Assembly (NCBI RefSeq): GCF_000015145.1
Contig: NC_008818.1
Coordinates: 1,500,001-1,532,000 of the forward strand
Direction of reading: 5' to 3'
Source: Hyperthermus butylicus DSM 5456
Lineage (GTDB): Archaea; Thermoproteota; Thermoprotei_A; Sulfolobales; Pyrodictiaceae
DNA length: 32,000 nucleotides
Shown: positions 14,858 through 26,877 of the stretch, one piece after another
Position numbering within the stretch: position 1 is the first letter of the stretch
Layout: each line of letters starts with the position of its first letter
Position numbers and translations under genes: made by a program
Notes under the pieces: model-generated
What the model was told of the DNA's origin: nothing
Database searches by the model: none
Seen by the model: only the letters and a program-made list of their open reading frames with translations

Positions 14858-15697
14858 TTAGCTTGTCGTGGTTGCCATTGCTTCTTCTACTTGTTTTCTT
14901 TGTTGTGCTTTCTTTTTGCCTAGCTTGATGGCTATGTGGAGTGGTATGTAGAGGCTTAGGCCTATTATGAGCATGCCTAGGCCGCTGGGGTCGGGGGAGA
15001 TTATTGCGCCTACGATCATTGTGCCTAGGAGTATGTACTTCATTGTGGTGGGGGTGAAGTGGTCTGGGCTTATTATGCCGTAGGCTAGGAGGAGGTATAT
15101 GACGATGGGTGTTTCGAAGAGTAATCCGAATGCTATTGCGAGCTTGATTACGAAGTCTACTACCGTGCTTATCCTTATTGTTAGTAGGAATTTGTAGCCT
15201 GACGGTACGAGTGGTGGGTAGAGCTTGAGCATCATCGTGTATATGAATGGCGCCACTATGTATATTGCGAAGAATACTCCGAAGAGGAATGCTGCTACGA
15301 AGAGGAACATGAAGCGTTTTGCGAAGCGCTTCTCGTGGGGGTAGAGTGCTGGCTCTACGTAGGCCCATATCTCCCGTGCAGCTATCGGTGTTGAGCCCAT
15401 AACTCCGAGGAGGAGGATACCCTCAACCATTATCTGTATCGATTCGAACTCTGTGCTGGGGAGTATCGTGACGTTATAGGTGTGCCCATCAAACGTGGTT
15501 ATCTGCTTTGGAACAGTGTGAGCCACAATCAGGCTTGGAAGCTTCGCGGCCAAGGGAACGTAGAGTAGGCCACCCTTACCCGCCGGAATAACCGAGAGCA
15601 CAAGTGCAGATATGATAAACGCTATGATTATTCTACGTAGCCTAATGGCGAGCTCTGTTAGGTGCTCCCAGATGCTAGCCTCCCTATCCTCAGCCAA
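14858..15697 (-). CDS. tatC: twin-arginine translocase subunit TatC
   Basis: The ORF is 279 aa. The N-terminal signature is IWEHLTELAIRLRRIIIAFIISALV, followed by a six-TM pattern. The gene lies directly downstream of tatA. Confidence 0.85.
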   Translation of the reverse strand: MAEDREASIWEHLTELAIRLRRIIIAFIISALVLSVIPAGKGGLLYVPLAAKLPSLIVAHTVPKQITTFDGHTYNVTILPSTEFESIQIMVEGILLLGVMGSTPIAAREIWAYVEPALYPHEKRFAKRFMFLFVAAFLFGVFFAIYIVAPFIYTMMLKLYPPLVPSGYKFLLTIRISTVVDFVIKLAIAFGLLFETPIVIYLLLAYGIISPDHFTPTTMKYILLGTMIVGAIISPDPSGLGMLIIGLSLYIPLHIAIKLGKKKAQQRKQVEEAMATTTS

Positions 15698-15813: not shown

Positions 15814-16149
15814 CTACTTTTTCTCCGAGACCTTTATCTCGTCGAGGAGACCCTTCTTCTTTGCCTCGTTTATTATCTCGGTTATGAGGTCGTCCTTGCT
15901 CTTCTCCTTAGTCTCTATACCGAGCTTCTCGGCTAGCTTCTTAATCGTCTCCTCGTCGACGCCCTCCAGTTCCCTCCTCGTCTTCTCTGTCTTTCTTTCC
16001 TCCTCTAGGAGGCCTTGGGAGGCCTTCCTAAACTCGTAGAGTGCTTGTCCCAGGCCGCGGGCTAGCTGTGGCAGCTTGGTGGGCCCGAATATGAGCAGTA
16101 TTATTACGAGGATTATTACCCACTCCATGCCCTGAAGGAACTCGAACAC
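15814..16149 (-). CDS. tatA: twin-arginine translocase subunit TatA/E
   Basis: The ORF is 111 aa with a GTG start preceded by GGAGG. A TM helix plus hinge and amphipathic helix read WVIILVIILLIFGPTKLPQLARGLGQALYEFRKA, matching the TatA consensus FG-x2-KLP...F+. The C-terminal tail is rich in Lys and Glu. Confidence 0.8.
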   Translation of the reverse strand: MFEFLQGMEWVIILVIILLIFGPTKLPQLARGLGQALYEFRKASQGLLEEERKTEKTRRELEGVDEETIKKLAEKLGIETKEKSKDDLITEIINEAKKKGLLDEIKVSEKK

Positions 16150-16288: not shown

Positions 16289-17002
16289 TCATATCTCTGC
16301 GAGGGGCTTTGAGAGCAACGTAGCTATCACCGTGAAGGCTACAGCTACTCCTGCGAGTAGTGCTGTGTCGCCTAGTGTTGCTAGGCCTGCAGCGGCGTAG
16401 CCTAGGGGCTGGACTGCCTGTTGCAGGTATGGTGTTAGGAGGCCTGCAAGCACTACTATGGAGAGTAGGCTCCGGGACTCACTGTACACTATCATGAAGG
16501 AGGTTAGTGCTGCAGCGGCGGAAAAGTATAGGCTCACCACCATAACCATGGCTATGTATGCTGGTGATACTAGCTGGCTCCAGGAGGCTAGGAACGCTGT
16601 TGACAACGCGTAGGCTAGGGAGAGGCTGGCTACAAGCATGTAGATGTAGGCGAGTTTGGCCAGGAACAGCTCCTCCGGCGGGATAGCGGATGCGCGGAGC
16701 CCGTCGAGCGTGCCCTTCTCGGCCTCACGCAGCACAGCAAGGAACCCAGCGGCAAGGGATACAATGAGCATTGTGAGGATTTGGCCTGCTGCGAGCACCG
16801 CCGCTGCATCCTCGTACTCCGCTATAGGTGCTGCTGGCCCGGAAACCATGTAGGATGAAGCTAGGCCCGCCACACCAGCGACGATGAGCAGCGCTGCTGG
16901 CTCCTGCCAGCGCCTCATAGTGGATAGGAGATCCTTACGCAGCAGCGCGGCAAAGGCTAGCGGCAAGGCTGGCAAAACCCCGCGACGGTGGGGTGGGGGC
17001 AC
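16289..17002 (-). CDS. ccmB: heme exporter permease CcmB-like (ABC-2 type)
   Basis: This is a 237-aa protein with about 6 TM helices. The N-terminus FAALLRKDLLSTMRRWQEPAALLIV resembles the start of CcmB. It sits within the ccm operon beside ccmE, ccmC and ccmA. The call leans on gene context. Confidence 0.6.
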   Translation of the reverse strand: MPPPHRRGVLPALPLAFAALLRKDLLSTMRRWQEPAALLIVAGVAGLASSYMVSGPAAPIAEYEDAAAVLAAGQILTMLIVSLAAGFLAVLREAEKGTLDGLRASAIPPEELFLAKLAYIYMLVASLSLAYALSTAFLASWSQLVSPAYIAMVMVVSLYFSAAAALTSFMIVYSESRSLLSIVVLAGLLTPYLQQAVQPLGYAAAGLATLGDTALLAGVAVAFTVIATLLSKPLAEI

Positions 17003-17011
17003 GAAGAAGGC

Positions 17012-17440
17012 TTAGTCCTTTATCGCTGGCTGACTGTAGCCGCTGTGGCAGCCCTCGAGGATGTCTATTACGCGTAGGGTCCCGGTTGCCGGGTCGTAGA
17101 CGCCCTCTACCACGACGCTGTCTGGGTCCCAGCGCAGGTACTGTATCGGGCCATACTTCTTCTCGATATACTCGGCATCGGCCACTGCTAAGAGTTTACT
17201 ACCATCGCGGCCCTCTAGTACGAGGTATAGCTTGCGGCTAGCCTGGTCATAGTGGAGGCTTGCAAGCCTACCCTTGACCGTTACCTTGGCCTCCCTAACG
17301 AGTTTAACCACGTCCGAGACATCCATGTAGCTGCTACCCTTTACCGCATAGTAGCCTATCACCGCGAAGGCGGCGAAGAGTACTATTGCTGCGAGTATAG
17401 GCTTAGCCTTGCCAGCCGCCACTATTCCCAGCCCCACCAC
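17012..17440 (-). CDS. ccmE: cytochrome c maturation heme chaperone CcmE, CxxxY variant
   Basis: The ORF is 142 aa, with an N-terminal anchor helix and an OB-fold-like body (VTVKGRLASLHYDQASRKLYLVLEG). The C-terminal heme-attachment motif is EGCHSGY (nt 17036-17050), where bacterial CcmE has HxxxY. Confidence 0.8.
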   Translation of the reverse strand: MVGLGIVAAGKAKPILAAIVLFAAFAVIGYYAVKGSSYMDVSDVVKLVREAKVTVKGRLASLHYDQASRKLYLVLEGRDGSKLLAVADAEYIEKKYGPIQYLRWDPDSVVVEGVYDPATGTLRVIDILEGCHSGYSQPAIKD

Positions 17441-18677
17441 TTACCAGTCTCCGGGCTACAATATAGGCTAGCCCCGAAACAAGCAGCCCATAGAGTAGCG
17501 TGTCGACTATAACGCAGCCCGGCCGGAGCACGGAGAGCGCCGATGCGACAGTGGCCGAGAGGCCCCCTAGCCTCACCACGTGGCCCTGGAGCGCTACCTT
17601 GCCGTCAACCAGGTACTTGTCGATGGGCCCGGTGTAGGTTATGTTGACGAAGCCCCCGCTAAGCCTCACGGTGAGCACTACACCGTTCCCTGAGGGGAAG
17701 ACACCGTATACCCTTGTAACGGTGCCGCCGAGGTAGCCGGTGGCCATGTAGACTGCTGTAGCCACTATTATCAAGCCGGCCGCAATGCCTGCTAGCCTGA
17801 GCCTCCTGGCATACTCTACGCCGGCTCCAGCAGCCCGCACATAGGCCTGCACCGATAGCAAGCCTATAGCGAGGACCAGCAGTATCTTCGAGTAGAATAT
17901 CGCCCGAACCGCTGGATCCTGCATGAAATCCTGGAGGAGCGCTTGTGTGGGATGCAGGCTCGACTCCGCTATACGGGGCGCAGCATAGCTAATCGGCACC
18001 ATTGCATAGGCGGCAACGGCGTAGACCGAGGAAACCACTGGGGCCCTGTCGGGGTCGGTTATGCTGGCCCGGAGCGCAAAGTAGACCAGGTAGACTAGGA
18101 AGAGTAGGAGGACGCCCGTCTCGCGGGGATCCCAGTTCCACGCCTTCCCCCAGGACTCGGCTGCCCAGAAGCTGCCCGAGACAAGCGTGTAGGCGGCGTA
18201 AAGCGTTGCAACGATCAGGAACCCAACAACATACCTATCATAGACTTGGCGCCGGCGGAGCAGGTAGAGTATAGCCGAGACAAACGCGCCAGTGTAGAGT
18301 ACATAGCTGACCATAGCTGTCGGCACATGGATGTAGATGTTGAGGTAGGCAGCAGGGCTTCCCAGAGGCACAAAGGCAGGATAGGACCCCTCCAGTACTG
18401 CATAAGCCGACACCAAAGCGTCAACAATTAGCAGCGTAGCGAGAAACCCCACGAGCCTACCAACACTACCAGCCAAGGCCCGGGAGTCACCCCGCAACAG
18501 CACAGCTGTAGCGTCCTCCCAATCCAGGTGCAAGGCCCACCGAGAACCAGGTAATAAAGCCACCCACGCAAAAATCCGGAGGCGATAGAGCCCCTGGACA
18601 GCATAGCCACATACCACTAGGCGATGTCCGTCCTGCAGCTCAGCCCTAGACACAGTTCTACAGGAATGCCCCGCCAA
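17403..18677 (-). CDS. ccmC: heme lyase/exporter subunit CcmC with about 130-aa C-terminal extension
   Basis: The WWD motif is WGKAWNWDPRETGVLLLFLVY, and the conserved His region is LNIYIHVPTAM. The N-terminal 67 aa or so of the track ORF look non-genuine, and a TTG at 18476 (MAGSVGRLVGFLATLLIV) is a plausible start. The C-terminal extension begins near aa 290. Confidence 0.8.
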   Translation of the reverse strand: MAGHSCRTVSRAELQDGHRLVVCGYAVQGLYRLRIFAWVALLPGSRWALHLDWEDATAVLLRGDSRALAGSVGRLVGFLATLLIVDALVSAYAVLEGSYPAFVPLGSPAAYLNIYIHVPTAMVSYVLYTGAFVSAILYLLRRRQVYDRYVVGFLIVATLYAAYTLVSGSFWAAESWGKAWNWDPRETGVLLLFLVYLVYFALRASITDPDRAPVVSSVYAVAAYAMVPISYAAPRIAESSLHPTQALLQDFMQDPAVRAIFYSKILLVLAIGLLSVQAYVRAAGAGVEYARRLRLAGIAAGLIIVATAVYMATGYLGGTVTRVYGVFPSGNGVVLTVRLSGGFVNITYTGPIDKYLVDGKVALQGHVVRLGGLSATVASALSVLRPGCVIVDTLLYGLLVSGLAYIVARRLVSGGAGNSGGWQG

Positions 18678-18723: not shown

Positions 18724-19374
18724 CTACCGTTTCCCCATCTCCAATAGCTTACCCTCTCTTATCTCGTAGACCTTGTCGGCTATTCCTAGGAGTTCTGGCT
18801 CTCCTTTGGGCGTCGCCGCTATTATCGCTGTGCCGCTGTCTGCTAGACCCCGCAGCATGACCGTTAGTGTCTTGGCAGCGTCGGGGTCTAGGCCGGTTAG
18901 GGGCTCGTCTATGAGGAGTAGTCTTGGTTTGTGGGCCAGGGCTCGGGCTATGTCCCCGCGGCGGCGCCAGCCGAAGCTCAGCCAGCCCGCTAGCTGGCTG
19001 AGCCTCGCCCTTAGCCCTAGCTTTTCCACGATGGGATCGGATGCGGACACGTAGCTTGACGCGTTGTTTAGCCTAGCGTATAACTCGATGTTCTCAGCTA
19101 CGGTTAGCTCGTCGTAGAGGAAGCTGTGGTGCATAACCACGCCTCTGCAGCGCTTCGCCTCGAGGCTCCAGGGCGGGTGACCGCAGACCCTTACCTCTCC
19201 CCTGCTTGGGCGGAGAAGGCCAGCAAGTATCCTTAGCAGCGTGGTCTTCCCGGAGCCGTTGGGGCCTACAATGACTACCAGCTCGCCCTCCTCTACTTTG
19301 AGTTCTACCCCGCGTAGAACCCATTCACCTGGACGGTAGGCCTTCCAGAGGTTCCTCGCGTAGGCTATGGTCAA
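18724..19374 (-). CDS. ccmA: heme export ABC ATPase CcmA
   Basis: The ORF is 216 aa. Walker A is GPNGSGKTT. The CcmA-like signature is LSFGWRRRGDIARAL, and Walker B is LLLIDEPLTGLD. The TTG start overlaps the ccmF stop (TTGA at 19371-19374). Confidence 0.75.
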   Translation of the reverse strand: MTIAYARNLWKAYRPGEWVLRGVELKVEEGELVVIVGPNGSGKTTLLRILAGLLRPSRGEVRVCGHPPWSLEAKRCRGVVMHHSFLYDELTVAENIELYARLNNASSYVSASDPIVEKLGLRARLSQLAGWLSFGWRRRGDIARALAHKPRLLLIDEPLTGLDPDAAKTLTVMLRGLADSGTAIIAATPKGEPELLGIADKVYEIREGKLLEMGKR

Positions 19375-22300
19375 GCCCTGCCAGCCCTCCTCGATGCGAG
19401 CACGCCTACGGCTGCGAGGTATAGTGCTGAGACCGCCATTACCACTGGGCCTATCCAGACGAGCCTCACGCCGGGCACGAGCTTAACCTGTAGGCGTAGA
19501 CCATCCCTTACCAGTGTAGAGTTTGCAGGGTCGAACTTCGAGGCCAGAATGTAGACGTCTAGGAGGCTGTTCTCCAGGAACGCCCTTGCCTGTTGCTTCT
19601 CGAGGCCGGATACGAAGTCTGCGTTGTAGCCTCCAACCATTACTGCTGCCAGGGCTAGTCGATCCGGCACGGTGAGGTTCTTGAATGCCTCGTGGAGATA
19701 GTAGATTAGCAGCTCGTGATACGCCACGGCCTTGCCGTAGATTATGCTATCCACTACAGGCGGGTTAATGACTATGTATAGCTCGTCGAGCCCCAGGCCG
19801 GGATGCATAACCTTTGGTACAAGCCCATGGATACCTTGTACCTCTCCATAGGCTTCGAATCGTATCCTCAGCTTGACCTCCCTAAGGTCATCGCCCCTTC
19901 CCACCAGCAGCTTGACATCCAGCCAGGCTGTTTCGGGTACAAGCCTCGGCGCCGCCACGTAGGCCCTGCAACTATCAGCGAATAGTGCACCGGAGGCTAG
20001 ACAGTCCCTGGTGAACGCTAGCTCGAGCACTCTATCCGGCTCCCTCAGCAGCTCGTAGAGACCTGTCTCGTTAAGTAGGCGCATCAGCTCCCGGTACCTC
20101 TCGTCCTGGGAGACCACAGCGTAGACTACGAGGGGGCGTGGTAGCTCAGCCGGTATGGCTATAGAGGTGTTGCCCCATACCACGAGCCTACCAGCATCAA
20201 TGCCTATCACCGAGTCCTCGCCGGTTATCCTCCCATCTTCCACCCTTAGGGGGGCACCCTTCCCCGCTGATAGCATCGCCTGCGAGGTTAGCGTAGCATT
20301 CACCACCTCTACAGTAATGTTGCCCAGGACTATCCTTGTAGGCTCATTGAATTCTAGTGCTAAAAGCTCGTGTACCCCCAGGAGGGGCGGCATGAAGGCT
20401 GACACGTTCCTCTGAAGCTCGAGGACCATTCTTGCAGCGCTCAGCCTCAGGTAGACCATGAGCCTGCCTGTCTCCTCGTCCAGGACCGGGGCTGGTGTGA
20501 GCGTTACATTCGTCAGCATGATGCGTACCGGCTCGTTGTAGGCTATAACCATTGTAGCATTCTGTGTGAAGCTGATAAACCTCACGGTAGCGTTAGCCTC
20601 GACGGTAAAGTTGCCCAGGTATACTAGCTCGTCGCGCATCGTTAGGTTGAGAAGGAGGCGCAGCGTCCTGTTCTCGTATAGGCTCCTACCGACCTCATAG
20701 TCACGTATAATGGATGCCATATCGTTTGCCAGAGTGTAGAGGGCCACTTGGCCATAGTAGTAGCTGCTGCTTCTCCCAACGTACTGCGTATAGATGTCCA
20801 CTCGGGAACTGCTTATTCCGTAGCTGTAGTCCTCAAAGACTAGCTTGACTCCGCCCGGGAGCTCGAGCACCTCGCCCGGCTTCAGCGTGTAGTCCCGAAG
20901 GTACACCGTATTGAAGGCGTATGTGCCGCTGAGCAGGATGCCCAGCACGGTGAGTGAGAGGCCTAGGTGTAGGAGTGAGAGCCCGGAGAGACGGTCGCCG
21001 AGCAGTGTTGGGGATCTACGGCGGACCTGCAAGGCTATGTACGTAGCTGTGGAGGCCGCTGCAGTGACGGCCCAGGGGAGCCCAAATGCCATCAGTATAC
21101 TGGTTTCCTGAGGGCTAAGCGGGGCTAACACAATGTAGCCACGATACGCGGCTACTGCTAGCACACTAGCTATGACTGCTGTGGTTGCTGTGAGTGCTGC
21201 GTAGCCCCTCCAGCCCAGCCACTTGCCGGTAAACACTGCCGGTATTGCAGCGAGCATCGCTATGAGTAGCGGGTAGAGCACCGGGTGGTAGAATTCTACG
21301 CCCTCCTTCATCTGCGGCACCGTGACTTCGTGGCCGGCTAGCGTGTAGAGAGCCGGGATGAAAAGCGACGCGTAGACAAACACCGAGGCTGCCAGAAGCG
21401 CCGCAAAGGCCACGGCGAGGCCTACACGGTACGTGTCGAGGCTGCGAATCGCCCTCGACAGCTCCTTGCCCGCCAACTCTACGCTGGTGTAGAGCCTCCA
21501 GACAGCGTAAGCGAACGCTGCCGCGCCCAGGGAGAGGAGGCTCGCTGCACCAATAGTGGAAGCCGCGAAGCTGTGTAAGGGGCTAAGACCGCTCCTCGTA
21601 ACGTACATCGCGGTGAATATGCTTGAGAGAAGCCAGGCAGCATTGAACCCGCTAAGGCTGGGGGCTACTGCGAGCATGTGGGCTAGCAGGGTAGCTACGA
21701 GCCAGACCATTAGCTCGCTGGTCTCAACCGGGTCCCAGGCCCAGTAGCCTCCCCAGCCGAAGGTCTCGTAGCTCCAATACCCTCCTATCAGTATGCCAAG
21801 GGTTAGCAGTGCCCAGCCAACCTCGTAGAGTATGTAGCCCTCCCTCCTGACGCCAGCCAGGAACGCTATAGAGGAGACAGCTAGCAGGGCGTAGCCCCCA
21901 AACGTTGTGAGCGGATGGGGGTAGAGCCAGGGGCTCTTAAGCAGCGGATTTAGCCCGGCACCGCTAGCCGGGGGCTCCGGCAGCACCGTGAACGCATCGT
22001 TGAGGAATGCTGCAAGGAGACCGACGGTAACAACGACGGCTACTCCACCAGCTAGCCACCTCACCTCGTGACGGCGTAGGAGGTAGAGCCCCGCAAGGCT
22101 AGCGACAACGCTGAAGAGGTAAAGACTCCCGCCGCCCCCAGCCCATGCAGAGGCAAGCCTCATCCACAGGGGTAGGCCGGGGCTGGTATTCCAGAAGACC
22201 TCGTGCAGAGTGAAGTCCAGCCTTATGAATGGTATCCAGTAGACTAGCCAGCCAACAGCAGCCAACACGAGGCCGAGCTTGAGTATCCTCTCTACACGCC

Positions 22301-22400
22301 TACCAAGGGCTAGCGATGCTATGGCGCTATAGGCTACCAGTGCAAGCGCTGCTGCAGGCAGTATCGCTGTGTAGTGGAGTCCAAACAGCGAGAACGCCAA
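19371..22400 (-). CDS. ccmF: cytochrome c heme lyase CcmF, enlarged (1009 aa)
   Basis: The WWD motif is FGWGGYWAWDPVETSELMVWL. A polytopic N-terminal domain covers about 500 aa. A soluble insert of about 470 aa follows, and the protein ends with a TM helix (VWIGPVVMAVSALYLAAVGVL). The start is TTG, preceded by GAGGTGAT. Confidence 0.85.
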   Translation of the reverse strand: MAFSLFGLHYTAILPAAALALVAYSAIASLALGRRVERILKLGLVLAAVGWLVYWIPFIRLDFTLHEVFWNTSPGLPLWMRLASAWAGGGGSLYLFSVVASLAGLYLLRRHEVRWLAGGVAVVVTVGLLAAFLNDAFTVLPEPPASGAGLNPLLKSPWLYPHPLTTFGGYALLAVSSIAFLAGVRREGYILYEVGWALLTLGILIGGYWSYETFGWGGYWAWDPVETSELMVWLVATLLAHMLAVAPSLSGFNAAWLLSSIFTAMYVTRSGLSPLHSFAASTIGAASLLSLGAAAFAYAVWRLYTSVELAGKELSRAIRSLDTYRVGLAVAFAALLAASVFVYASLFIPALYTLAGHEVTVPQMKEGVEFYHPVLYPLLIAMLAAIPAVFTGKWLGWRGYAALTATTAVIASVLAVAAYRGYIVLAPLSPQETSILMAFGLPWAVTAAASTATYIALQVRRRSPTLLGDRLSGLSLLHLGLSLTVLGILLSGTYAFNTVYLRDYTLKPGEVLELPGGVKLVFEDYSYGISSSRVDIYTQYVGRSSSYYYGQVALYTLANDMASIIRDYEVGRSLYENRTLRLLLNLTMRDELVYLGNFTVEANATVRFISFTQNATMVIAYNEPVRIMLTNVTLTPAPVLDEETGRLMVYLRLSAARMVLELQRNVSAFMPPLLGVHELLALEFNEPTRIVLGNITVEVVNATLTSQAMLSAGKGAPLRVEDGRITGEDSVIGIDAGRLVVWGNTSIAIPAELPRPLVVYAVVSQDERYRELMRLLNETGLYELLREPDRVLELAFTRDCLASGALFADSCRAYVAAPRLVPETAWLDVKLLVGRGDDLREVKLRIRFEAYGEVQGIHGLVPKVMHPGLGLDELYIVINPPVVDSIIYGKAVAYHELLIYYLHEAFKNLTVPDRLALAAVMVGGYNADFVSGLEKQQARAFLENSLLDVYILASKFDPANSTLVRDGLRLQVKLVPGVRLVWIGPVVMAVSALYLAAVGVLASRRAGRA

Positions 22401-22417
22401 GGCAACACATCACCTCT

Positions 22418-23989
22418 CTAGACCAGCTGTAGGCTGTACATGAGTAGGTAGAGCCCCGAGGCTAGGAGGACTGCTCCACCAATCCTGCTTAGTAGGCTGC
22501 TCCTGGCGAGGAGCCTGTCTACAACACCCGCGCCCAGCCTGGATACGGTGTAGAGGGCTAGGGCTAGGGGCACGCTAACGCCGAGGGCGAAGCTTGATGC
22601 GACAAGCAGCGCTGACACAGTGCTCCCAGCACTAGCGATGAGTAGAAGTGCACCCACAACGAGGGGAAGGTTGCACTGCACAGCAAGGAACCCATAAGCG
22701 GCACAGAAGCCTATGAGGCCGCCCCTCCTAGCCGATATGATCCCCTCCAGCTCAACCGGGACCCCAAGCAGCCCCCCGAAACCAGCAGCAATAACAGCCG
22801 ACGCTATAACTGGTATTAGCACCTCCTGCAGCCTCGACACAGCGGCGCCGAACAGGACGAAGAGGGCACCTATCCCGAGCACCCCCACAAAGCTCGCGAG
22901 ACCACAGAGCCCACAGCTGCTAGCCGACATGACGCGGCCCCGAGAGCTGACGACAGCTGCCTGCGTAACCAGTAGCGGGAGAACACAAGGCGAGAATGCG
23001 GCCACAAAACCAGCTGCAAAGGCTGCTAGTGCACCTACAAGCCCTACTAGCTGCTGACTCCCGCTAGCCGTTACACTGATGACTGTAGCCTCGCCAGGCC
23101 CGGGCTCCACAGCCATAGCTTCAAGCGTGTCGTTGAAGAGTCTAGGCGGCTCCCTGCCGAGCAGCATAGCAGAGATGTACTCTAGCAGGTACGTAGCCCT
23201 ATCAACCTCGTAGGATGTGAGGTCCTGTACATACTTCCTCATGCCAGCTACAGCCTCGTGGAGCAAGTTGTAGCCACCGTAGAGCTCGCTTAGCGTCCGA
23301 TTAGACCTCAACGCTTCGACAAGCCTCTCGGCAAGCATGTCGCCTGCCACAGCCCTACGCGACTCAAGCCAAACCCTCAACGATTCAGTGTCGATACCTT
23401 CTATGTGGCCGTGGCATACTGCGCATCTAGAGTTGAAGACCTGGAGGCCCTCAGAGGCAAGCCTCTCCGGGTTAGAGGCCACAGCAAGCCCGGCAGCTGA
23501 AAGGGCCCAGGATAGCATAGCCTCGGTTATGTTTCCGCCCCAAAAGCCCCCCACATGCCTTGCAACCGGTTTACCGTCAACGAAGACTATGAAGGTCGGA
23601 GTCTCGGAGACGCCATAGCGGCGAAAAGCGGGGTCGCTTTCACCACTGTACATTATGTGGTAGAACTCTACGGGGAGCTGGCTACTAGCCTCCTCCAGCC
23701 GGGCCCAGTACGGGTACATCTTCCTGCACACCGGGCAGCTGGGAGCCTCAAACATTACAGCCACTGGCTTCTCCGTCTCCTCTAGGAGCTTCTCGAGAGC
23801 AGCAAGGTTCGGTATACTGTTCCCCGAAACCTTGAGGTAGACCTTGGAATCTCCCTCCATGTACACAAGCAGCGAGAACACTACAACAGCAGATATGGTC
23901 ACCAAGACTACGAGTAGCGCGCCGCTACGCTTCCGCCTCTGGAACCCCTCAAGGTCTAGCCTCATGCTCCTACGCCGCAGCCCCGACAA
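22418..23989 (-). CDS. fusion protein: signal anchor + thioredoxin (CPVC) + cytochrome c (CAVCH) + CcdA/DsbD-type membrane thiol-disulfide transporter
   Basis: The ORF is 523 aa. The thioredoxin motif is MFEAPSCPVCRKMYPYW (CPVC at nt 23726-23737). The class-I heme c site is LQVFNSRCAVCHGH (CAVCH at nt 23411-23425). The CcdA membrane cysteines are AAFSPCVLPLLV and FLAVQCNLPLVV, and an additional CGLC lies at nt 22904-22915. This is the first gene of the ccm operon. Confidence 0.75.
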   Translation of the reverse strand: MSGLRRRSMRLDLEGFQRRKRSGALLVVLVTISAVVVFSLLVYMEGDSKVYLKVSGNSIPNLAALEKLLEETEKPVAVMFEAPSCPVCRKMYPYWARLEEASSQLPVEFYHIMYSGESDPAFRRYGVSETPTFIVFVDGKPVARHVGGFWGGNITEAMLSWALSAAGLAVASNPERLASEGLQVFNSRCAVCHGHIEGIDTESLRVWLESRRAVAGDMLAERLVEALRSNRTLSELYGGYNLLHEAVAGMRKYVQDLTSYEVDRATYLLEYISAMLLGREPPRLFNDTLEAMAVEPGPGEATVISVTASGSQQLVGLVGALAAFAAGFVAAFSPCVLPLLVTQAAVVSSRGRVMSASSCGLCGLASFVGVLGIGALFVLFGAAVSRLQEVLIPVIASAVIAAGFGGLLGVPVELEGIISARRGGLIGFCAAYGFLAVQCNLPLVVGALLLIASAGSTVSALLVASSFALGVSVPLALALYTVSRLGAGVVDRLLARSSLLSRIGGAVLLASGLYLLMYSLQLV

Positions 23990-24142: not shown

Positions 24143-24997
24143 CTAGGAGCCCCCAGCCGCAACTACAGCTGCGGCCTTCCCAGGCTCGGAGACACTTGTC
24201 TCCTCGTCCTTACAAGCCTTCTTGTTGCTGGTAAGCTTCTCCTCGATGAACCTCCGGTGCGCCTCACGGTTTAGTATTATGCCGACAAGGTAGTGTGGAA
24301 GCTCGTGCCGGACAAATGCCTCCACAACCTTGGCCTCAGCCTTCCGGAGTAGTTCAGCCAGCGTAGAAACCGAGACGCCGAGCTTTGCAGCTAGACTCTT
24401 AAGACTAATCCTTCGTGGGAAGCTATAGTAGCCCATCAGGTAGGCGTAGATAAGTGCTAGCTCCTGCTTCTCGGTCAGCATGTAGTCGTACTCGTCGATA
24501 CGATGCATGAATACTATCCTGTACCCGCTAGACCGGAGGTAATCTAGCCCCTTCCCCCGCGCCACTATGAACTCGCAGAGAATACCATAGGGCGCAATTA
24601 TAACGGACTTAGCCATAACACCTATGGGAGCTGATACCAGTAGACAGCTCTTACCATTCCGTAGGCACGCACACTTAGACACATCGACGAGGATCCTGTA
24701 TACGTTGTTAAACTTGCTGGAATAGACGCGCTGGAAGGCAAGCCCATCCATTCGCTTCAGCTGTCTCTCAAACTCTTCCATCGATCCGTTCCCGCCGCTA
24801 GCCCGAACCCAGAGCTCCGTAACGCCCCGCTCCCAGTCAATGTTAACCCTCAAGACGCGCGCAGCGAGACCACTAACAAGCCTAAGCGGGCCGCTATCAG
24901 TATCGCTGCTCTTCTTAGCAGCACTGCTAACCGCCATGTACAGCGGACATTCAAGGTTGTCGCGGAGGCAGAACACTACTAGTGGCACATTCGACAT
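24143..24997 (-). CDS. HTH_10 (bacterio-opsin-activator-type) DNA-binding regulator
   Basis: The ORF is 284 aa. The C-terminal HTH reads LTEKQELALIYAYLMGYYSFPRRISLKSLAAKLGVSVSTLAELLRKAEAKVVEAF, which matches the HTH_10 pattern LT-x-+Q...GY(F/Y)-x-PR...LA..LG(I/V)S..T..E.LR+AE.K. Confidence 0.7.
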   Translation of the reverse strand: MSNVPLVVFCLRDNLECPLYMAVSSAAKKSSDTDSGPLRLVSGLAARVLRVNIDWERGVTELWVRASGGNGSMEEFERQLKRMDGLAFQRVYSSKFNNVYRILVDVSKCACLRNGKSCLLVSAPIGVMAKSVIIAPYGILCEFIVARGKGLDYLRSSGYRIVFMHRIDEYDYMLTEKQELALIYAYLMGYYSFPRRISLKSLAAKLGVSVSTLAELLRKAEAKVVEAFVRHELPHYLVGIILNREAHRRFIEEKLTSNKKACKDEETSVSEPGKAAAVVAAGGS

Positions 24998-25099: not shown

Positions 25100-25355
25100 G
25101 ACGTATGTACGGTATACCCAGCTTCTACCCACACAACGCCCAGCCACGCTGCCAAAAACGGCACCTAACAACCCTCCCCCTCACGGCGAGAAAACCGTGG
25201 AACCCATCCAAGGCTGGGTACCCATAACCCCCTATTACATCAAGGTTACCAACAATGATCTACGGCAGAGACAGCATTAGTGCCATGAGGTCTTCGCGAT
25301 TTCCCCTTGAGTTCTCGCCGTATAGGAGGCATGAGAGCCGTTATAGTTTACTGAG

Positions 25356-25365
25356 TTATTTAAAT
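25356..25365 (+). promoter_or_regulatory. TATA-like box TTATTTAAAT upstream of the CBS gene
   Basis: This AT-rich box lies about 25-30 nt upstream of the first possible start of the CBS ORF (TTG 25387). That spacing is consistent with an archaeal TATA to TSS distance. Confidence 0.3.
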
Positions 25366-25386
25366 TCCGAAATGTGGAGTGAATAG

Positions 25387-25929
25387 TTGGACCTTGGCCT
25401 GGCTGTGAACAGCAAGAACATACAATTCCTGTTGCCTATTATCGTGAATTACTTGGCTTACTTGTTTGGGCCATGTGCTTGGCTGTGGTGGGTTTTTGTT
25501 GGGGGTGTGTTGTGGGTTTGTGCTTGGGGTGGAGTTTTGCCCCTTGTTACTGCTCGGGATTTGATTAGGGATTCTCGTCTGGTGTATGCTTTTCTGGATG
25601 GAACAATTACTGATGCTGTTAAGCGTAAGACCGAGCCTAGTGTTGGTAGTGTACCGGTTGTTGGTCATGATATGAGACTTCTTGGTATTTTTACCGAGAG
25701 GGATCCTGTGGGGCTTATTGCTAGTGATGAGAGTCTCGATCGGAGTCTTGGAGAGGTTATGATGTGGGGTCTTGGTGTGGCTCATCCTGATGATTCGCTT
25801 CCGAGTACTGCATATAAAATGGTACGGCACGGGGCTAGGCATACCCCAGTTGTTGATGAGGATGATAGGCTCCTTTGCGTGGTGAGTATTCGTCGGGTAC
25901 CGCAGTACATGCTTGCTGGAAGTGAATAG
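25387..25929 (+). CDS. CBS-pair domain protein
   Basis: Two CBS-like repeats are present: VPVVGHDMRLLGIFTERD and TPVVDEDDRLLCVVSIRR. The first 50 codons or so (G/T-rich, WLWWVFVGGVLWVCAWGG) may not be translated. Alternative starts are GTG 25507 and TTG 25537. Confidence 0.7.
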   Translation: MDLGLAVNSKNIQFLLPIIVNYLAYLFGPCAWLWWVFVGGVLWVCAWGGVLPLVTARDLIRDSRLVYAFLDGTITDAVKRKTEPSVGSVPVVGHDMRLLGIFTERDPVGLIASDESLDRSLGEVMMWGLGVAHPDDSLPSTAYKMVRHGARHTPVVDEDDRLLCVVSIRRVPQYMLAGSE

Positions 25930-25950
25930 CCTTAGGGGGTTGTTGGGGTC

Positions 25951-26877
25951 TTGGCTGTGCCAAGGATCACAGTGTACGTTGTTGATGTAGTGTTTAGGCC
26001 TTTGAGGAGTGTCCAGCTCAGGGGTGCCTGGAGTGGGGTTTTCTCGGGGAAGGTTGTGTATGATGCGTTGAGCCTTTCTGGCCTGGTGCTTGATCGTGGC
26101 GGGTTTTTCCGTGTAACTCCGGTTTACCGTGCCAGTGTCAGCCTTGACGCTCCGAGTAACGCTCCGGCGCCAGTTGCTGGAACGCTGTTCTCTGGGGAAC
26201 GGTACCGGTTCCGTGCCGTATTCTGGGGTTGGACCGGGTTTGTAGAGGCTAGGGATGCCGTTAATGCCCTGGTTAGCGGGCTGGGCGGGCTAGACTATGT
26301 CGAGGTACTTGAAGCTAGAGCCAGGACCATTGATGTCGAGTTGCCAGAGCCTCACATCGAGAATCACGGTGAGCGGCCGGTTGCCGGCGAGTTCGAGGTG
26401 CTTCACGAGGCTACATTCTACCGATTCCACGGCGCGCTAGTCTCGTACCCTAGCCCCTGGAGACTCATAGCGAGCGTTGCCCGGCGCATCTCAATGGCCT
26501 CAGGGATAGACTACCGCCCACTTGTCAGGCTCCTCCAGCCCTGCCTGGAGGTGGCTGTGGATAAGACTAAGAGGATGAGGATAAAGCTCACCCACGGCGA
26601 GGAAGTACCAGTCTTCAAGGGCCCCGTGGTCTACCATGTTGTCTGCAGCGAGCACCTCTACAGGCTAACCCAGCAAATGCTAGAGCTAGCCAAGCTCTTC
26701 GGCGTAGGCGGGAGCCCCGGCCTAGGCATCGGAGTAGTCTACAACGTTAGGAAGGTGCCATCACGCCATAAGTTACCGCCGGGCGTACTAAAGGATACCT
26801 ATGCCCTTGAACCCGAAGAGGGGGAGAAACTTGTAAAGCATGGAAGCGCAAATGGTGATGATACCAAAGAAACGTAG
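25951..26877 (+). CDS. Cas6-like RAMP protein (putative, orphan)
   Basis: The ORF is 308 aa with a TTG start, 22 nt after the CBS gene. The C-terminal glycine-rich loop FGVGGSPGLGIGVV fits the RAMP/Cas6 signature GhGxxxxxGhG exactly. Upstream segments resemble Cas6 blocks: FFRVTPVY, GERYRFRAVFWG, FEVLHEATFYRFHGALVSYPSPWRLIASVARR and VPVFKGPVVYHVV. There is no His in the first 134 residues. The call rests on pattern recognition only. Confidence 0.5.
   Translation: MAVPRITVYVVDVVFRPLRSVQLRGAWSGVFSGKVVYDALSLSGLVLDRGGFFRVTPVYRASVSLDAPSNAPAPVAGTLFSGERYRFRAVFWGWTGFVEARDAVNALVSGLGGLDYVEVLEARARTIDVELPEPHIENHGERPVAGEFEVLHEATFYRFHGALVSYPSPWRLIASVARRISMASGIDYRPLVRLLQPCLEVAVDKTKRMRIKLTHGEEVPVFKGPVVYHVVCSEHLYRLTQQMLELAKLFGVGGSPGLGIGVVYNVRKVPSRHKLPPGVLKDTYALEPEEGEKLVKHGSANGDDTKET

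Follow-up and report, generated by a model that had tools for sequence, protein, structure and literature searches.

A Thioredoxin–CcdA Fusion with an Embedded Cytochrome-c-like Domain at the Head of the ccm Operon of Hyperthermus butylicus

Domain Architecture of the Fusion Protein

The window studied here is a stretch of 32,000 nucleotides from Hyperthermus butylicus DSM 5456 (NC_008818.1, positions 1,500,001 to 1,532,000), and its gene of interest lies at 22418..23989 on the reverse strand (all coordinates are those of the window), where it heads a cytochrome c maturation (ccm) operon. The gene is one uninterrupted open reading frame (ORF) of 523 amino acids with a TTG start, and its product is 100% identical to ABM81337.1/WP_011822655.1/UniProt A2BMX6, named “thioredoxin fold domain-containing protein” by NCBI and “cytochrome c biogenesis protein” by UniProt. 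From the N- to the C-terminus, it consists of a membrane anchor (N-in), a thioredoxin (Trx) domain, a module of about 115 residues bearing a CxxCH motif and a CcdA domain of six transmembrane (TM) helices, an architecture encoded by a single ORF in more than 40 homologues. What is new here is a predicted reductant conduit of the DsbD/CcdA family with an embedded domain that looks cytochrome-like in sequence and is conserved in a family of archaeal hyperthermophiles.

An earlier note on this DNA, made from the letters alone, had proposed a fusion of this kind, and its observations were confirmed while its interpretation is partly supported (see below). The ORF is indeed continuous, without frameshift or stop, the positions given for the three motifs CPVC, CAVCH and CGLC are exact, and the order of the domains is supported. 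A split gene or a frameshift artefact can be ruled out, since the ORF is continuous both in the window and in the more than 40 homologues.

All parts of the protein are read from the reverse strand. The signal-anchor helix TM0 (residues 24–42, 23864..23920) was delineated by hydropathy and positive-inside analysis and corresponds to a modelled helix spanning residues 13–52. It is followed by the Trx domain (residues ~58–162, 23504..23818), which is defined by Pfam, PDB and Foldseek matches and by invariant residues, and by the cytochrome-c-like module (residues ~168–285, 23135..23488), which is delimited by its absence from shorter homologues, its conservation, HHalign and the AlphaFold2 model. 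An acidic, proline-rich linker of low model confidence and poorly conserved columns (residues 286–311, 23057..23134) then leads to TM1 of the CcdA domain (residues 312–523, 22421..23056), which is recognised by the family profile, invariant motifs and hydropathy. The full-length model (mean predicted local distance difference test, pLDDT, of 84.6) features three confident domains with low-confidence linkers between them, the pLDDT falling below 50 at residues 286–294 and 307–310 of the linker between module and CcdA.

Regarding topology, eight Lys/Arg residues precede TM0 in the cytoplasmic N-terminus, whereas hydropathy and charge leave about 270 net-acidic residues outside after the anchor, ahead of the six TM helices. 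Because hydropathy and charge distribution place both the Trx domain and the module outside, as the earlier note had supposed, the two are predicted to be extracytoplasmic, i.e., on the side of the membrane on which haem attachment by System I takes place.

The Trx domain carries its active site CPVC at residues 85–88 (nt 23726–23737) and matches Pfam over residues 65–149 above the curated cut-offs (PF13098: 40.2 bits vs. 27; PF00085: 37.8 vs. 23.5), in keeping with the fold first proposed for it. Its closest relative of solved structure is a Methanosarcina thioredoxin (3hz4, E 9e-11), and a Foldseek search with the full-length AlphaFold2 model returned template modelling scores, normalised by target, of up to 0.87 against classical thioredoxins. 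An alignment of 35 family members shows no variation at C85, P86 and C88 or at P131 in the cis-Pro loop (ETPTF). By these sequence and model comparisons, the domain belongs to the classical, Trx-like part of the thioredoxin superfamily, and redox activity is predicted for it.

The membrane domain shows six hydrophobic segments with Arg-rich cytoplasmic loops, the helices being also present in the AlphaFold2 model. Taken as a single sequence, it stays below the Pfam cut-offs (DsbD_TM: E 0.033, 13.9 bits vs. 27.1; DsbD_2: 16.7 vs. 24.9), but a profile built from 35 family members matches the CcdA of Thermus (5vkv, E 9.7e-10, profile positions 298–496 on chain positions 3–199), so that the CcdA assignment of the earlier note holds for the family profile and not for the single sequence. 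The redox cysteines are C335 (FSPCVLP, nt 22985–22987) and C439 (QCNLP, nt 22673–22675), and S333, P334, C335 and P338, as well as Q438, C439 and P442, are invariant in the family alignment. The domain is accordingly assigned, on sequence grounds, to the CcdA class of the DsbD superfamily, with six TM helices, both ends outside and one Cys in each of TM1 and TM4. DsbD proper was considered and ruled out: there is no alpha domain, the TM helices are six instead of eight, and the Trx domain is N-terminal.

The CcdA domain also holds an additional CGLC (C359–C362, nt 22904–22915, reverse strand) at the cytoplasmic end of TM2, right after the SSRGR loop. This extra CxxC is present in 57 members (long and short forms of Pyrodictiaceae-type clades) and absent from 31 more distant ones, which makes it clade-specific and independent of the putative haem module. 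It could be an added cytoplasmic electron-entry or metal site.

Extent and Conservation of the Middle Module

Across 56 database homologues, two size classes were observed. The long forms (44 proteins, 477–587 amino acids, plus two truncated entries among them) each have one CxxCH at the same place, while the entire segment of about 115 residues is missing from the short forms (12 proteins, 386–423 amino acids). Since 44 homologues have the module and the other 12 lack it through a clean deletion, it is, as far as sequences tell, a discrete unit. In H. butylicus, its landmarks are CAVCH (residues 189–193, nt 23411–23425), W207 (nt 23369–23371), M250 (nt 23240–23242), which is the proposed axial ligand and lies 57 residues downstream of the motif, and the C-terminal helix LTSYEVDRATYLLEY.

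Conservation was assessed on 69 unique modules of Desulfurococcales, gathered from the database homologues, from 35 genomic loci of GTDB species representatives and from the hits of an exhaustive profile search, with identities to the module of the window ranging from 21 to 100% (median 43%). C189, C192, H193 and M250 are kept in all 68 unique modules covering those columns, which bears out the conservation of CxxCH that the earlier note had called for, and W207 is kept in 69 out of 69. L269 is near-invariant, while the remaining positions drift, including the residue preceding the first Cys, which varies among homologues. The XX of CxxCH takes 19 different dipeptides, mostly with A, S, G or T first, whereas the Trx site of the same proteins is fixed as CPxC. 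A variable, small XX combined with an invariant His and an invariant distal Met is the pattern expected of a haem c site and, judged from the alignment, is unlike that of a redox-tuned dithiol. A chance CxxCH or a misread Trx site was ruled out: the frequency expected by chance for a protein of such composition is 0.0015, the motif is conserved in all module-bearing homologues, and CPVC is a separate site located 100 residues upstream.

Similarity of the Module to Class I Cytochromes

In single-sequence scans of the middle segment against NCBIfam and Pfam, nothing cytochrome-like rose above threshold; the best Pfam match of the module of the window is PF13442 (E 0.005, 17.6 bits vs. a cut-off of 27, 26 of 68 profile positions). 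Below thresholds, matches among 32 modules are to Cytochrome_CBB3 (29 modules), Cytochrom_C (26) and Cytochrom_C1 (13), with a best E-value of 2.3e-5. The CcmH family, whose members carry an LRCxxC motif, is matched by none of these 32 modules (PF03918, E ≤ 1).

When compared to the PDB, the module profile retrieves almost only class I cytochromes (CcoP, cytochrome c of bc1, c6, mitochondrial c) over about 20 residues, and the matches include 2l4d, a fusion of Sco with cytochrome c. A profile search of 1.84 billion representative proteins found full-length module matches solely in the Trx–CcdA fusion family, without any free-standing module protein among these representatives, while the other matches fall repeatedly on module positions ~10–40. 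Six non-family matches were scanned against Pfam and all six are genuine multi-domain class I cytochromes, above threshold. No independent fusion of a cytochrome c with CcdA was found among the 142 other proteins from this search, which have neither CcdA nor a Trx of the family type.

The case for homology over the whole domain is made by one HHalign comparison, for which 14 genuine Cytochrome_CBB3 domains, cut from three multi-domain cytochromes, served as reference. The module aligns to them with 96.6% probability (E 5e-10), starting at the N-terminal helix and running through CxxCH, in a register that sets M250 on the axial Met of “GMP” and DLTSYEVDRATYLLEY on the C-terminal helix LSxxEIxxIxAYL, with an insertion of about 16 residues in the module ahead of the Met. 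When residues up to CxxCH+2 were removed, the rerun returned the same C-terminal register with a score of 16.0, higher than all 200 column shuffles (8.2 ± 1.8, maximum 14.1). This points to an independent C-terminal support for cytochrome homology that is genuine, if modest in size. Finally, the AlphaFold2 model of the module is all-helical, with six helices and a pLDDT of 90.5.

Taxonomic Distribution and Evolution of the Family

According to record titles, the family is confined to hyperthermophiles of the Desulfurococcales type, i.e., Hyperthermus, Pyrodictium, metagenome-assembled genomes (MAGs) of Pyrodictiaceae, Ignicoccus, Thermodiscus, Acidilobaceae and MAGs of Aeropyrum, with distant relatives, exclusively module-less, in MAGs of Bathyarchaeia and Nitrososphaerota. 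A neighbour-joining tree was computed without bootstrap from the shared Trx and CcdA columns. In this tree, long forms occur in every deep clade, short forms are nested at at least four positions, and a single hidden Markov model recognises all long-form modules except the degenerate insert of an Aeropyrum MAG (locus L038). Because long forms are found in all deep clades, short forms are nested and one model fits, the simplest history to be read from these sequences would be an ancestral module, retained under selection and repeatedly lost. The Aeropyrum exception is a 446-residue fusion (L038:9995-11335, WAKF01000030.1) located directly upstream of ccmF, with an insert of about 75 residues, and the insert is entirely lost in a sister Aeropyrum MAG (L032).

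Two module-less Trx–CcdA paralogues (L001:9001-10263 and another at L029) share CPHC as active site, group in a clade of their own and lack ccm linkage. The gene at L001 is convergent with a gene for a fusion of 3'-phosphoadenosine 5'-phosphosulfate (PAPS) reductase with a 4Fe-4S ferredoxin, a neighbourhood that suggests a separate extracytoplasmic reduction pathway.

The ccm Operon and Its Neighbourhood

The position of the gene at the head of a ccm operon, already pointed out in the earlier note, is borne out by five genes downstream on the same strand. ccmF (19371..22400), which starts 18 nt downstream of the fusion gene, encodes 1009 amino acids with a WWD-type motif (WAWDPVE) and matches Cytochrom_C_asm and CcmF_C in Pfam and nrfE/CcmF in NCBIfam. 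Next come ccmA (18724..19374), an ABC ATPase supported by ABC_tran in Pfam and by TIGR01189 in NCBIfam (E 7e-35, below the cut-off of that model), and ccmC (17403..18677, 424 amino acids; Cytochrom_C_asm, E 1e-27; NCBIfam ccmC, E 3e-23). The translation of 17012..17440 identifies an archaeal-type ccmE of 142 amino acids, ending with EGCHSGYSQP (CxxxY, not HxxxY), and ccmE also lies downstream of ccmC in relatives. Finally, 16289..17002 encodes a CcmB-like ABC-2 permease, which has a weak Pfam match (ABC2_membrane_4, E 7e-4) and is conserved in related ccm loci. No match to CcmH was obtained among the operon ORFs scanned with Pfam and NCBIfam. With a CxxxY CcmE, CcmF and CcmC all recognised from their sequences, the operon can be assigned to System I*, the archaeal variant that has a Cys-type CcmE (CxxxY) and no CcmH (PMC3601427); Gupta et al. 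state that CcmD, CcmH and CcmI are missing from all archaeal genomes (PMC9084895).

Of the 22 long-form loci whose downstream sequence is long enough, 19 have the start of ccmF less than 400 nt from the stop of the fusion gene, and so does the window. The long form of Thermodiscus (L019) has ccmA and ccmC less than 3 kb away, while two long-form loci of the Ignicoccus type are not ccm-linked and sit among housekeeping genes. As for the short forms, three loci are not ccm-linked, e.g., beside the PAPS-reductase/ferredoxin gene. A strict rule by which the module would be present if and only if the gene is ccm-linked was ruled out, three short forms heading ccm operons and two long forms being unlinked.

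Several features of the neighbouring genes deserve mention. The Pfam CcmF matches stop at residue ~514, and no Pfam match covers the following ~490 residues (~515–1009) of CcmF, which are rich in N-x-S/T sequons, end with a C-terminal hydrophobic helix and are conserved in relatives (tblastn alignments cover residues 1–1007); this extension is another candidate for a CcmH/CcmI-like handling of apocytochromes in System I*. In CcmC, the Cytochrom_C_asm match is limited to residues 88–237, the NCBIfam ccmC model has 184 positions, and N- and C-terminal extensions are present. Directly after the ccm genes, tatA (15814–16149) and tatC (14858–15697) follow on the same strand, so that twin-arginine (Tat) export stands beside a Sec-dependent haem-attachment system, and TatA/TatC homologues are also found near the family gene at L024 and L029.

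Just upstream of the fusion gene, 24143–24997 (reverse strand) encodes a 284-residue regulator of the HTH_10 (bacterio-opsin-activator) type, the N-terminal part of which has no Pfam match. Homologues lie immediately upstream of the family gene in seven Pyrodictiaceae loci (46–53% identity), and more distant ones (30–36%) occur within a few kb in other Desulfurococcales (L003, L019, L024, L031, L033). This conserved neighbour of the operons may be devoted to regulating cytochrome maturation. Farther away, a Cas6-like ORF was detected at 25951–26877 on the forward strand (PF10040, E 1.4e-5). No CRISPR array was detected in the window, in which Tandem Repeats Finder reported one 24-bp repeat of two copies (25484–25531), and the ~650 bp preceding the Cas6-like ORF (25300–25950) have a GC content of 0.49 vs. 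0.55 and hold only low-complexity, overlapping ORFs.

A Putative Haem Domain in the Probable Thiol-Reducing Arm of System I*

For cytochromes c to mature, both the cysteines of the apocytochrome and the haem iron must be in the reduced state on the outer side of the membrane. Having computed the domain identities, the topology, the operon position and the residue conservation, we regard it as probable, on balance, that the product of the gene is the part of System I* that reduces thiols, and that it incorporates a divergent cytochrome c domain with one haem under His/Met ligation; what we infer beyond these results is haem attachment, axial ligation, and the direction and partners of electron flow. 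Under this hypothesis, the C335/C439 pair of CcdA would transfer cytoplasmic reducing equivalents through the membrane and the tethered Trx (CPVC) would take electrons from CcdA, like the gamma domain in DsbD, to reduce the CxxCH disulfides of incoming apocytochromes beside the co-encoded haem lyase CcmF. The module itself would be a helix-rich domain divergently related to class I (cbb3/c551-type) cytochromes c, with one covalent haem attached at C189/C192 by the same Ccm system and H193 and M250 as axial ligands. Such a haem domain would constitute a one-electron centre within reach of both the dithiol relay and CcmF.

For the role of the haem, in which the earlier note saw a possible electron relay or redox sensor, our preference goes to an exchange of electrons, whose partner would be either the dithiols of Trx and CcdA or the haem on which CcmE/CcmF act. 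In dsbD mutants of Shewanella oneidensis, CcmG receives electrons from NapB, a c-type cytochrome, by a route that the authors termed “unprecedented” (PMC8782879), and the module would perform a cis version of this transfer. Electron exchange is favoured because thioether formation needs reduced thiols as well as reduced haem iron, and because a path from a cytochrome to CcmG has been shown in trans. A more ambitious variant, which we hold to be rather unlikely, would see in the protein a dual-reductant device: one polypeptide would bring to CcmF both reduced thiols (through CcdA and Trx) and the electron for ferrous haem iron (through its own c-type haem), the latter being poised by, or exchanging electrons with, the adjacent dithiols or the b-haem of CcmF. 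This would explain how System I* works without CcmH and, if true, the maturation machine would need a c-type cytochrome of its own making, in a self-priming loop.

Several observations weigh against a haem-bearing electron-transfer domain. No cytochrome model of Pfam is matched at its gathering score by any of the 32 modules, and the single-sequence matches (~25 residues) cover the N-terminal helix and CxxCH. The HHalign reference set was selected via similarity to the N-terminal part of the module, while the signal of the C-terminal half is weak when taken alone (P 0.028). Despite a confident AlphaFold2 model of the module, Foldseek returned no cytochrome c match from the PDB, the class I fold, in which N- and C-terminal helices surround the haem, being unrecognised by this structure comparison. 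The Aeropyrum insert at L038 retains CGDCH without the Trp and the Met, and the association between module and ccm linkage is marginal (Fisher p 0.046). Moreover, the ccm operons at L026, L028 and L032 are headed by a form that lacks the module, and no module encoded on its own was found in the available loci; since these three ccm-linked relatives do without the module, the pathway does not depend on it in every case. Finally, Methanosarcina can do without its separate CcmG and CcdA when conditions are reducing (PMC9084895). The “textbook class-I” haem c site of the earlier note thus stands for the N-terminal helix plus CxxCH, but not at Pfam thresholds or in Foldseek; nevertheless, none of the three findings that the note had named as fatal to its idea (no cytochrome similarity, an unconserved CxxCH, a split gene) was obtained in full.

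The main rival is a haem-free module acting as a third redox dithiol, in a cascade from CcdA to Trx, to the module and to the apocytochrome, and standing in for CcmH, which we consider a real, if minor, possibility. Bacterial CcmH carries its RCxxC motif on a small bundle of helices and operates together with CcmF. Archaeal System I* does without it, as it does without CcmD and CcmI (PMC9084895, PMC3601427); because archaea have no recognisable CcmH, a substitute is plausible, and for the orthologue of Pyrodictium delaneyi a role as “functional homolog of CcmH” had already been surmised (PMC5556600). The order of CcdA, Trx and a third dithiol parallels that from DsbD to CcmG and CcmH, the gene adjoins ccmF as bacterial ccmH does, and the module is compact, all-helical and devoid of structural matches to cytochromes. 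The degenerate Aeropyrum insert also fits, in that it keeps the Cys pair (with the His) and neither Met nor Trp. A dithiol relay, however, does not require the His and the distal Met present in 68 out of 68 modules, and its CxxC should be conserved, as redox-tuned motifs are (CPxC here), whereas the XX of the module is hypervariable. In addition, cytochrome models are matched by 29 of the 32 modules and Pfam CcmH by none, and in the HHalign register the Met falls opposite the one that serves as axial ligand in class I cytochromes.

Two further explanations are less likely than a CcmH-like dithiol. The module might bear haem as a pseudo-substrate or docking domain, engaging CcmF/CcmE like an apocytochrome and anchoring the Trx–CcdA reductase without any role in electron transfer. 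CcmH and CcmI, which hold apocytochromes at CcmF in bacteria, are absent (PMC9084895), ccmF is tightly adjacent in 19 out of 22 loci, long flexible linkers flank the extracytoplasmic part in the AlphaFold2 model, and the module is lost in places where the ccm operon stays. We nonetheless deem docking unlikely, the strict retention of a distal Met and of a Trp over deep divergence not being obviously explained by a structural role. Weakest is a non-haem metal site (e.g., Cu or Zn) at CxxCH...M, or a stabiliser in a hyperthermophile-specific spacer between Trx and CcdA, which appears highly improbable: Cys2-His-Met is a plausible ligand set for a soft metal and the fold is not recognisably cytochrome-like, but the spacing is not known to match those of the Sco, CuA and PCuAC ligands, the region around the motif has class I cytochromes as the great majority of its neighbours in sequence, and the gene is embedded in a haem-attachment operon. 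This last explanation would agree with the census of Kletzin et al., in which membrane-anchored CxxCH proteins of the thioredoxin family were classed as false positives (PMC4429474).

Returning to the favoured cytochrome c domain, a factor by which cytochromes are made ready to receive haem would then probably carry a covalent haem itself. Should haem binding be confirmed, the protein would be the first Ccm component that is itself a c-type cytochrome, a concrete candidate for the function missing along with CcmH, CcmD and CcmI in archaea (PMC9084895) and a natural cis version of the bypass from NapB to CcmG. Moreover, the module appears to be a relative of cytochrome c too divergent for current Pfam thresholds and for Foldseek, which makes it useful as a test case for the remote detection of haem domains.

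Comparison with Known Systems

No description of a Trx–cytochrome–CcdA fusion was found in the searchable literature, in agreement with the earlier note, which knew of no characterised example. The 2015 census of archaeal cytochromes c regarded membrane-anchored CxxCH proteins of the thioredoxin family as frequent false positives, and its cluster table has neither a CcdA entry nor any entry in the range Hbut_14xx–16xx, where the fusion is expected (about Hbut_152x, extrapolated from accession order), while its only thioredoxin cluster (no. 54) is unrelated to the fusion (PMC4429474). The genome paper of P. delaneyi lists five CXXCH proteins and notes the orthologue of the fusion as belonging to the CcdA superfamily, leaving its own CxxCH unnoticed (PMC5556600). 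Surveys have annotated orthologues only as thioredoxin or CcdA proteins, with the embedded cytochrome-like domain apparently unremarked, and motif-based archaeal censuses, by discarding CxxCH proteins of the thioredoxin family, have probably missed the whole family.

The DsbD superfamily comprises the classes DsbD, CcdA and ScsB, in all of which two redox cysteines in P-C motifs (TM1 and TM4) pass cytoplasmic reducing power to an extracytoplasmic Trx fold, as is predicted for the fusion protein (PMC3322552). With DsbD and ScsB, the latter also shares a fused Trx domain (their gamma), and with the superfamily a presumed role in cytochrome c maturation. It differs from DsbD by having six TM helices (CcdA-type) instead of eight, no immunoglobulin-like alpha domain and a Trx domain that is N-terminal, behind its own anchor helix, instead of C-terminal. 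Above all, the cytochrome-like CxxCH domain between Trx and the membrane domain is absent from all three classes, none of which has a haem domain (PMC3322552). CcmG/ResA and a separate CcdA, as found in bacteria and Methanosarcina (PMC9084895), provide the same two activities, those of a membrane-borne electron transporter and of an exported thioredoxin-like reductase, and are encoded with ccm genes, whereas here both are predicted to reside in one polypeptide with the cytochrome-like domain interposed; in contrast to CcmG, moreover, the Trx domain resembles classical thioredoxins (3hz4, PF00085) and not the Redoxin/TlpA type.

The module itself can be compared to two kinds of small domains. 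With class I cytochromes (Cytochrome_CBB3/c551/c6; PF13442, PF00034), it has in common an N-terminal helix ending with CxxCH, a small XX, an extracytoplasmic location, a Met about 57 residues on and a C-terminal helix of the form M-x3-aromatic ... L-[ST]-x-x-E-[IV] ... Y-L, but ahead of the Met it is longer by about 16 residues and by two to three helices. Bacterial CcmH is likewise a small, helical, extracytoplasmic domain encoded beside ccmF, with a CxxC next to a basic residue, yet the module has no sequence similarity to it (0 of 32 modules match in Pfam) and features an invariant His, a distal Met and a hypervariable XX. The nearest functional precedent would be the NapB route (PMC8782879), in which a c-type cytochrome, itself matured by Ccm, feeds a thioredoxin-like component. 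NapB, however, is a separate dihaem protein acting as a back-up in trans, whereas in H. butylicus and its relatives a putative monohaem domain is fused between Trx and its donor CcdA.

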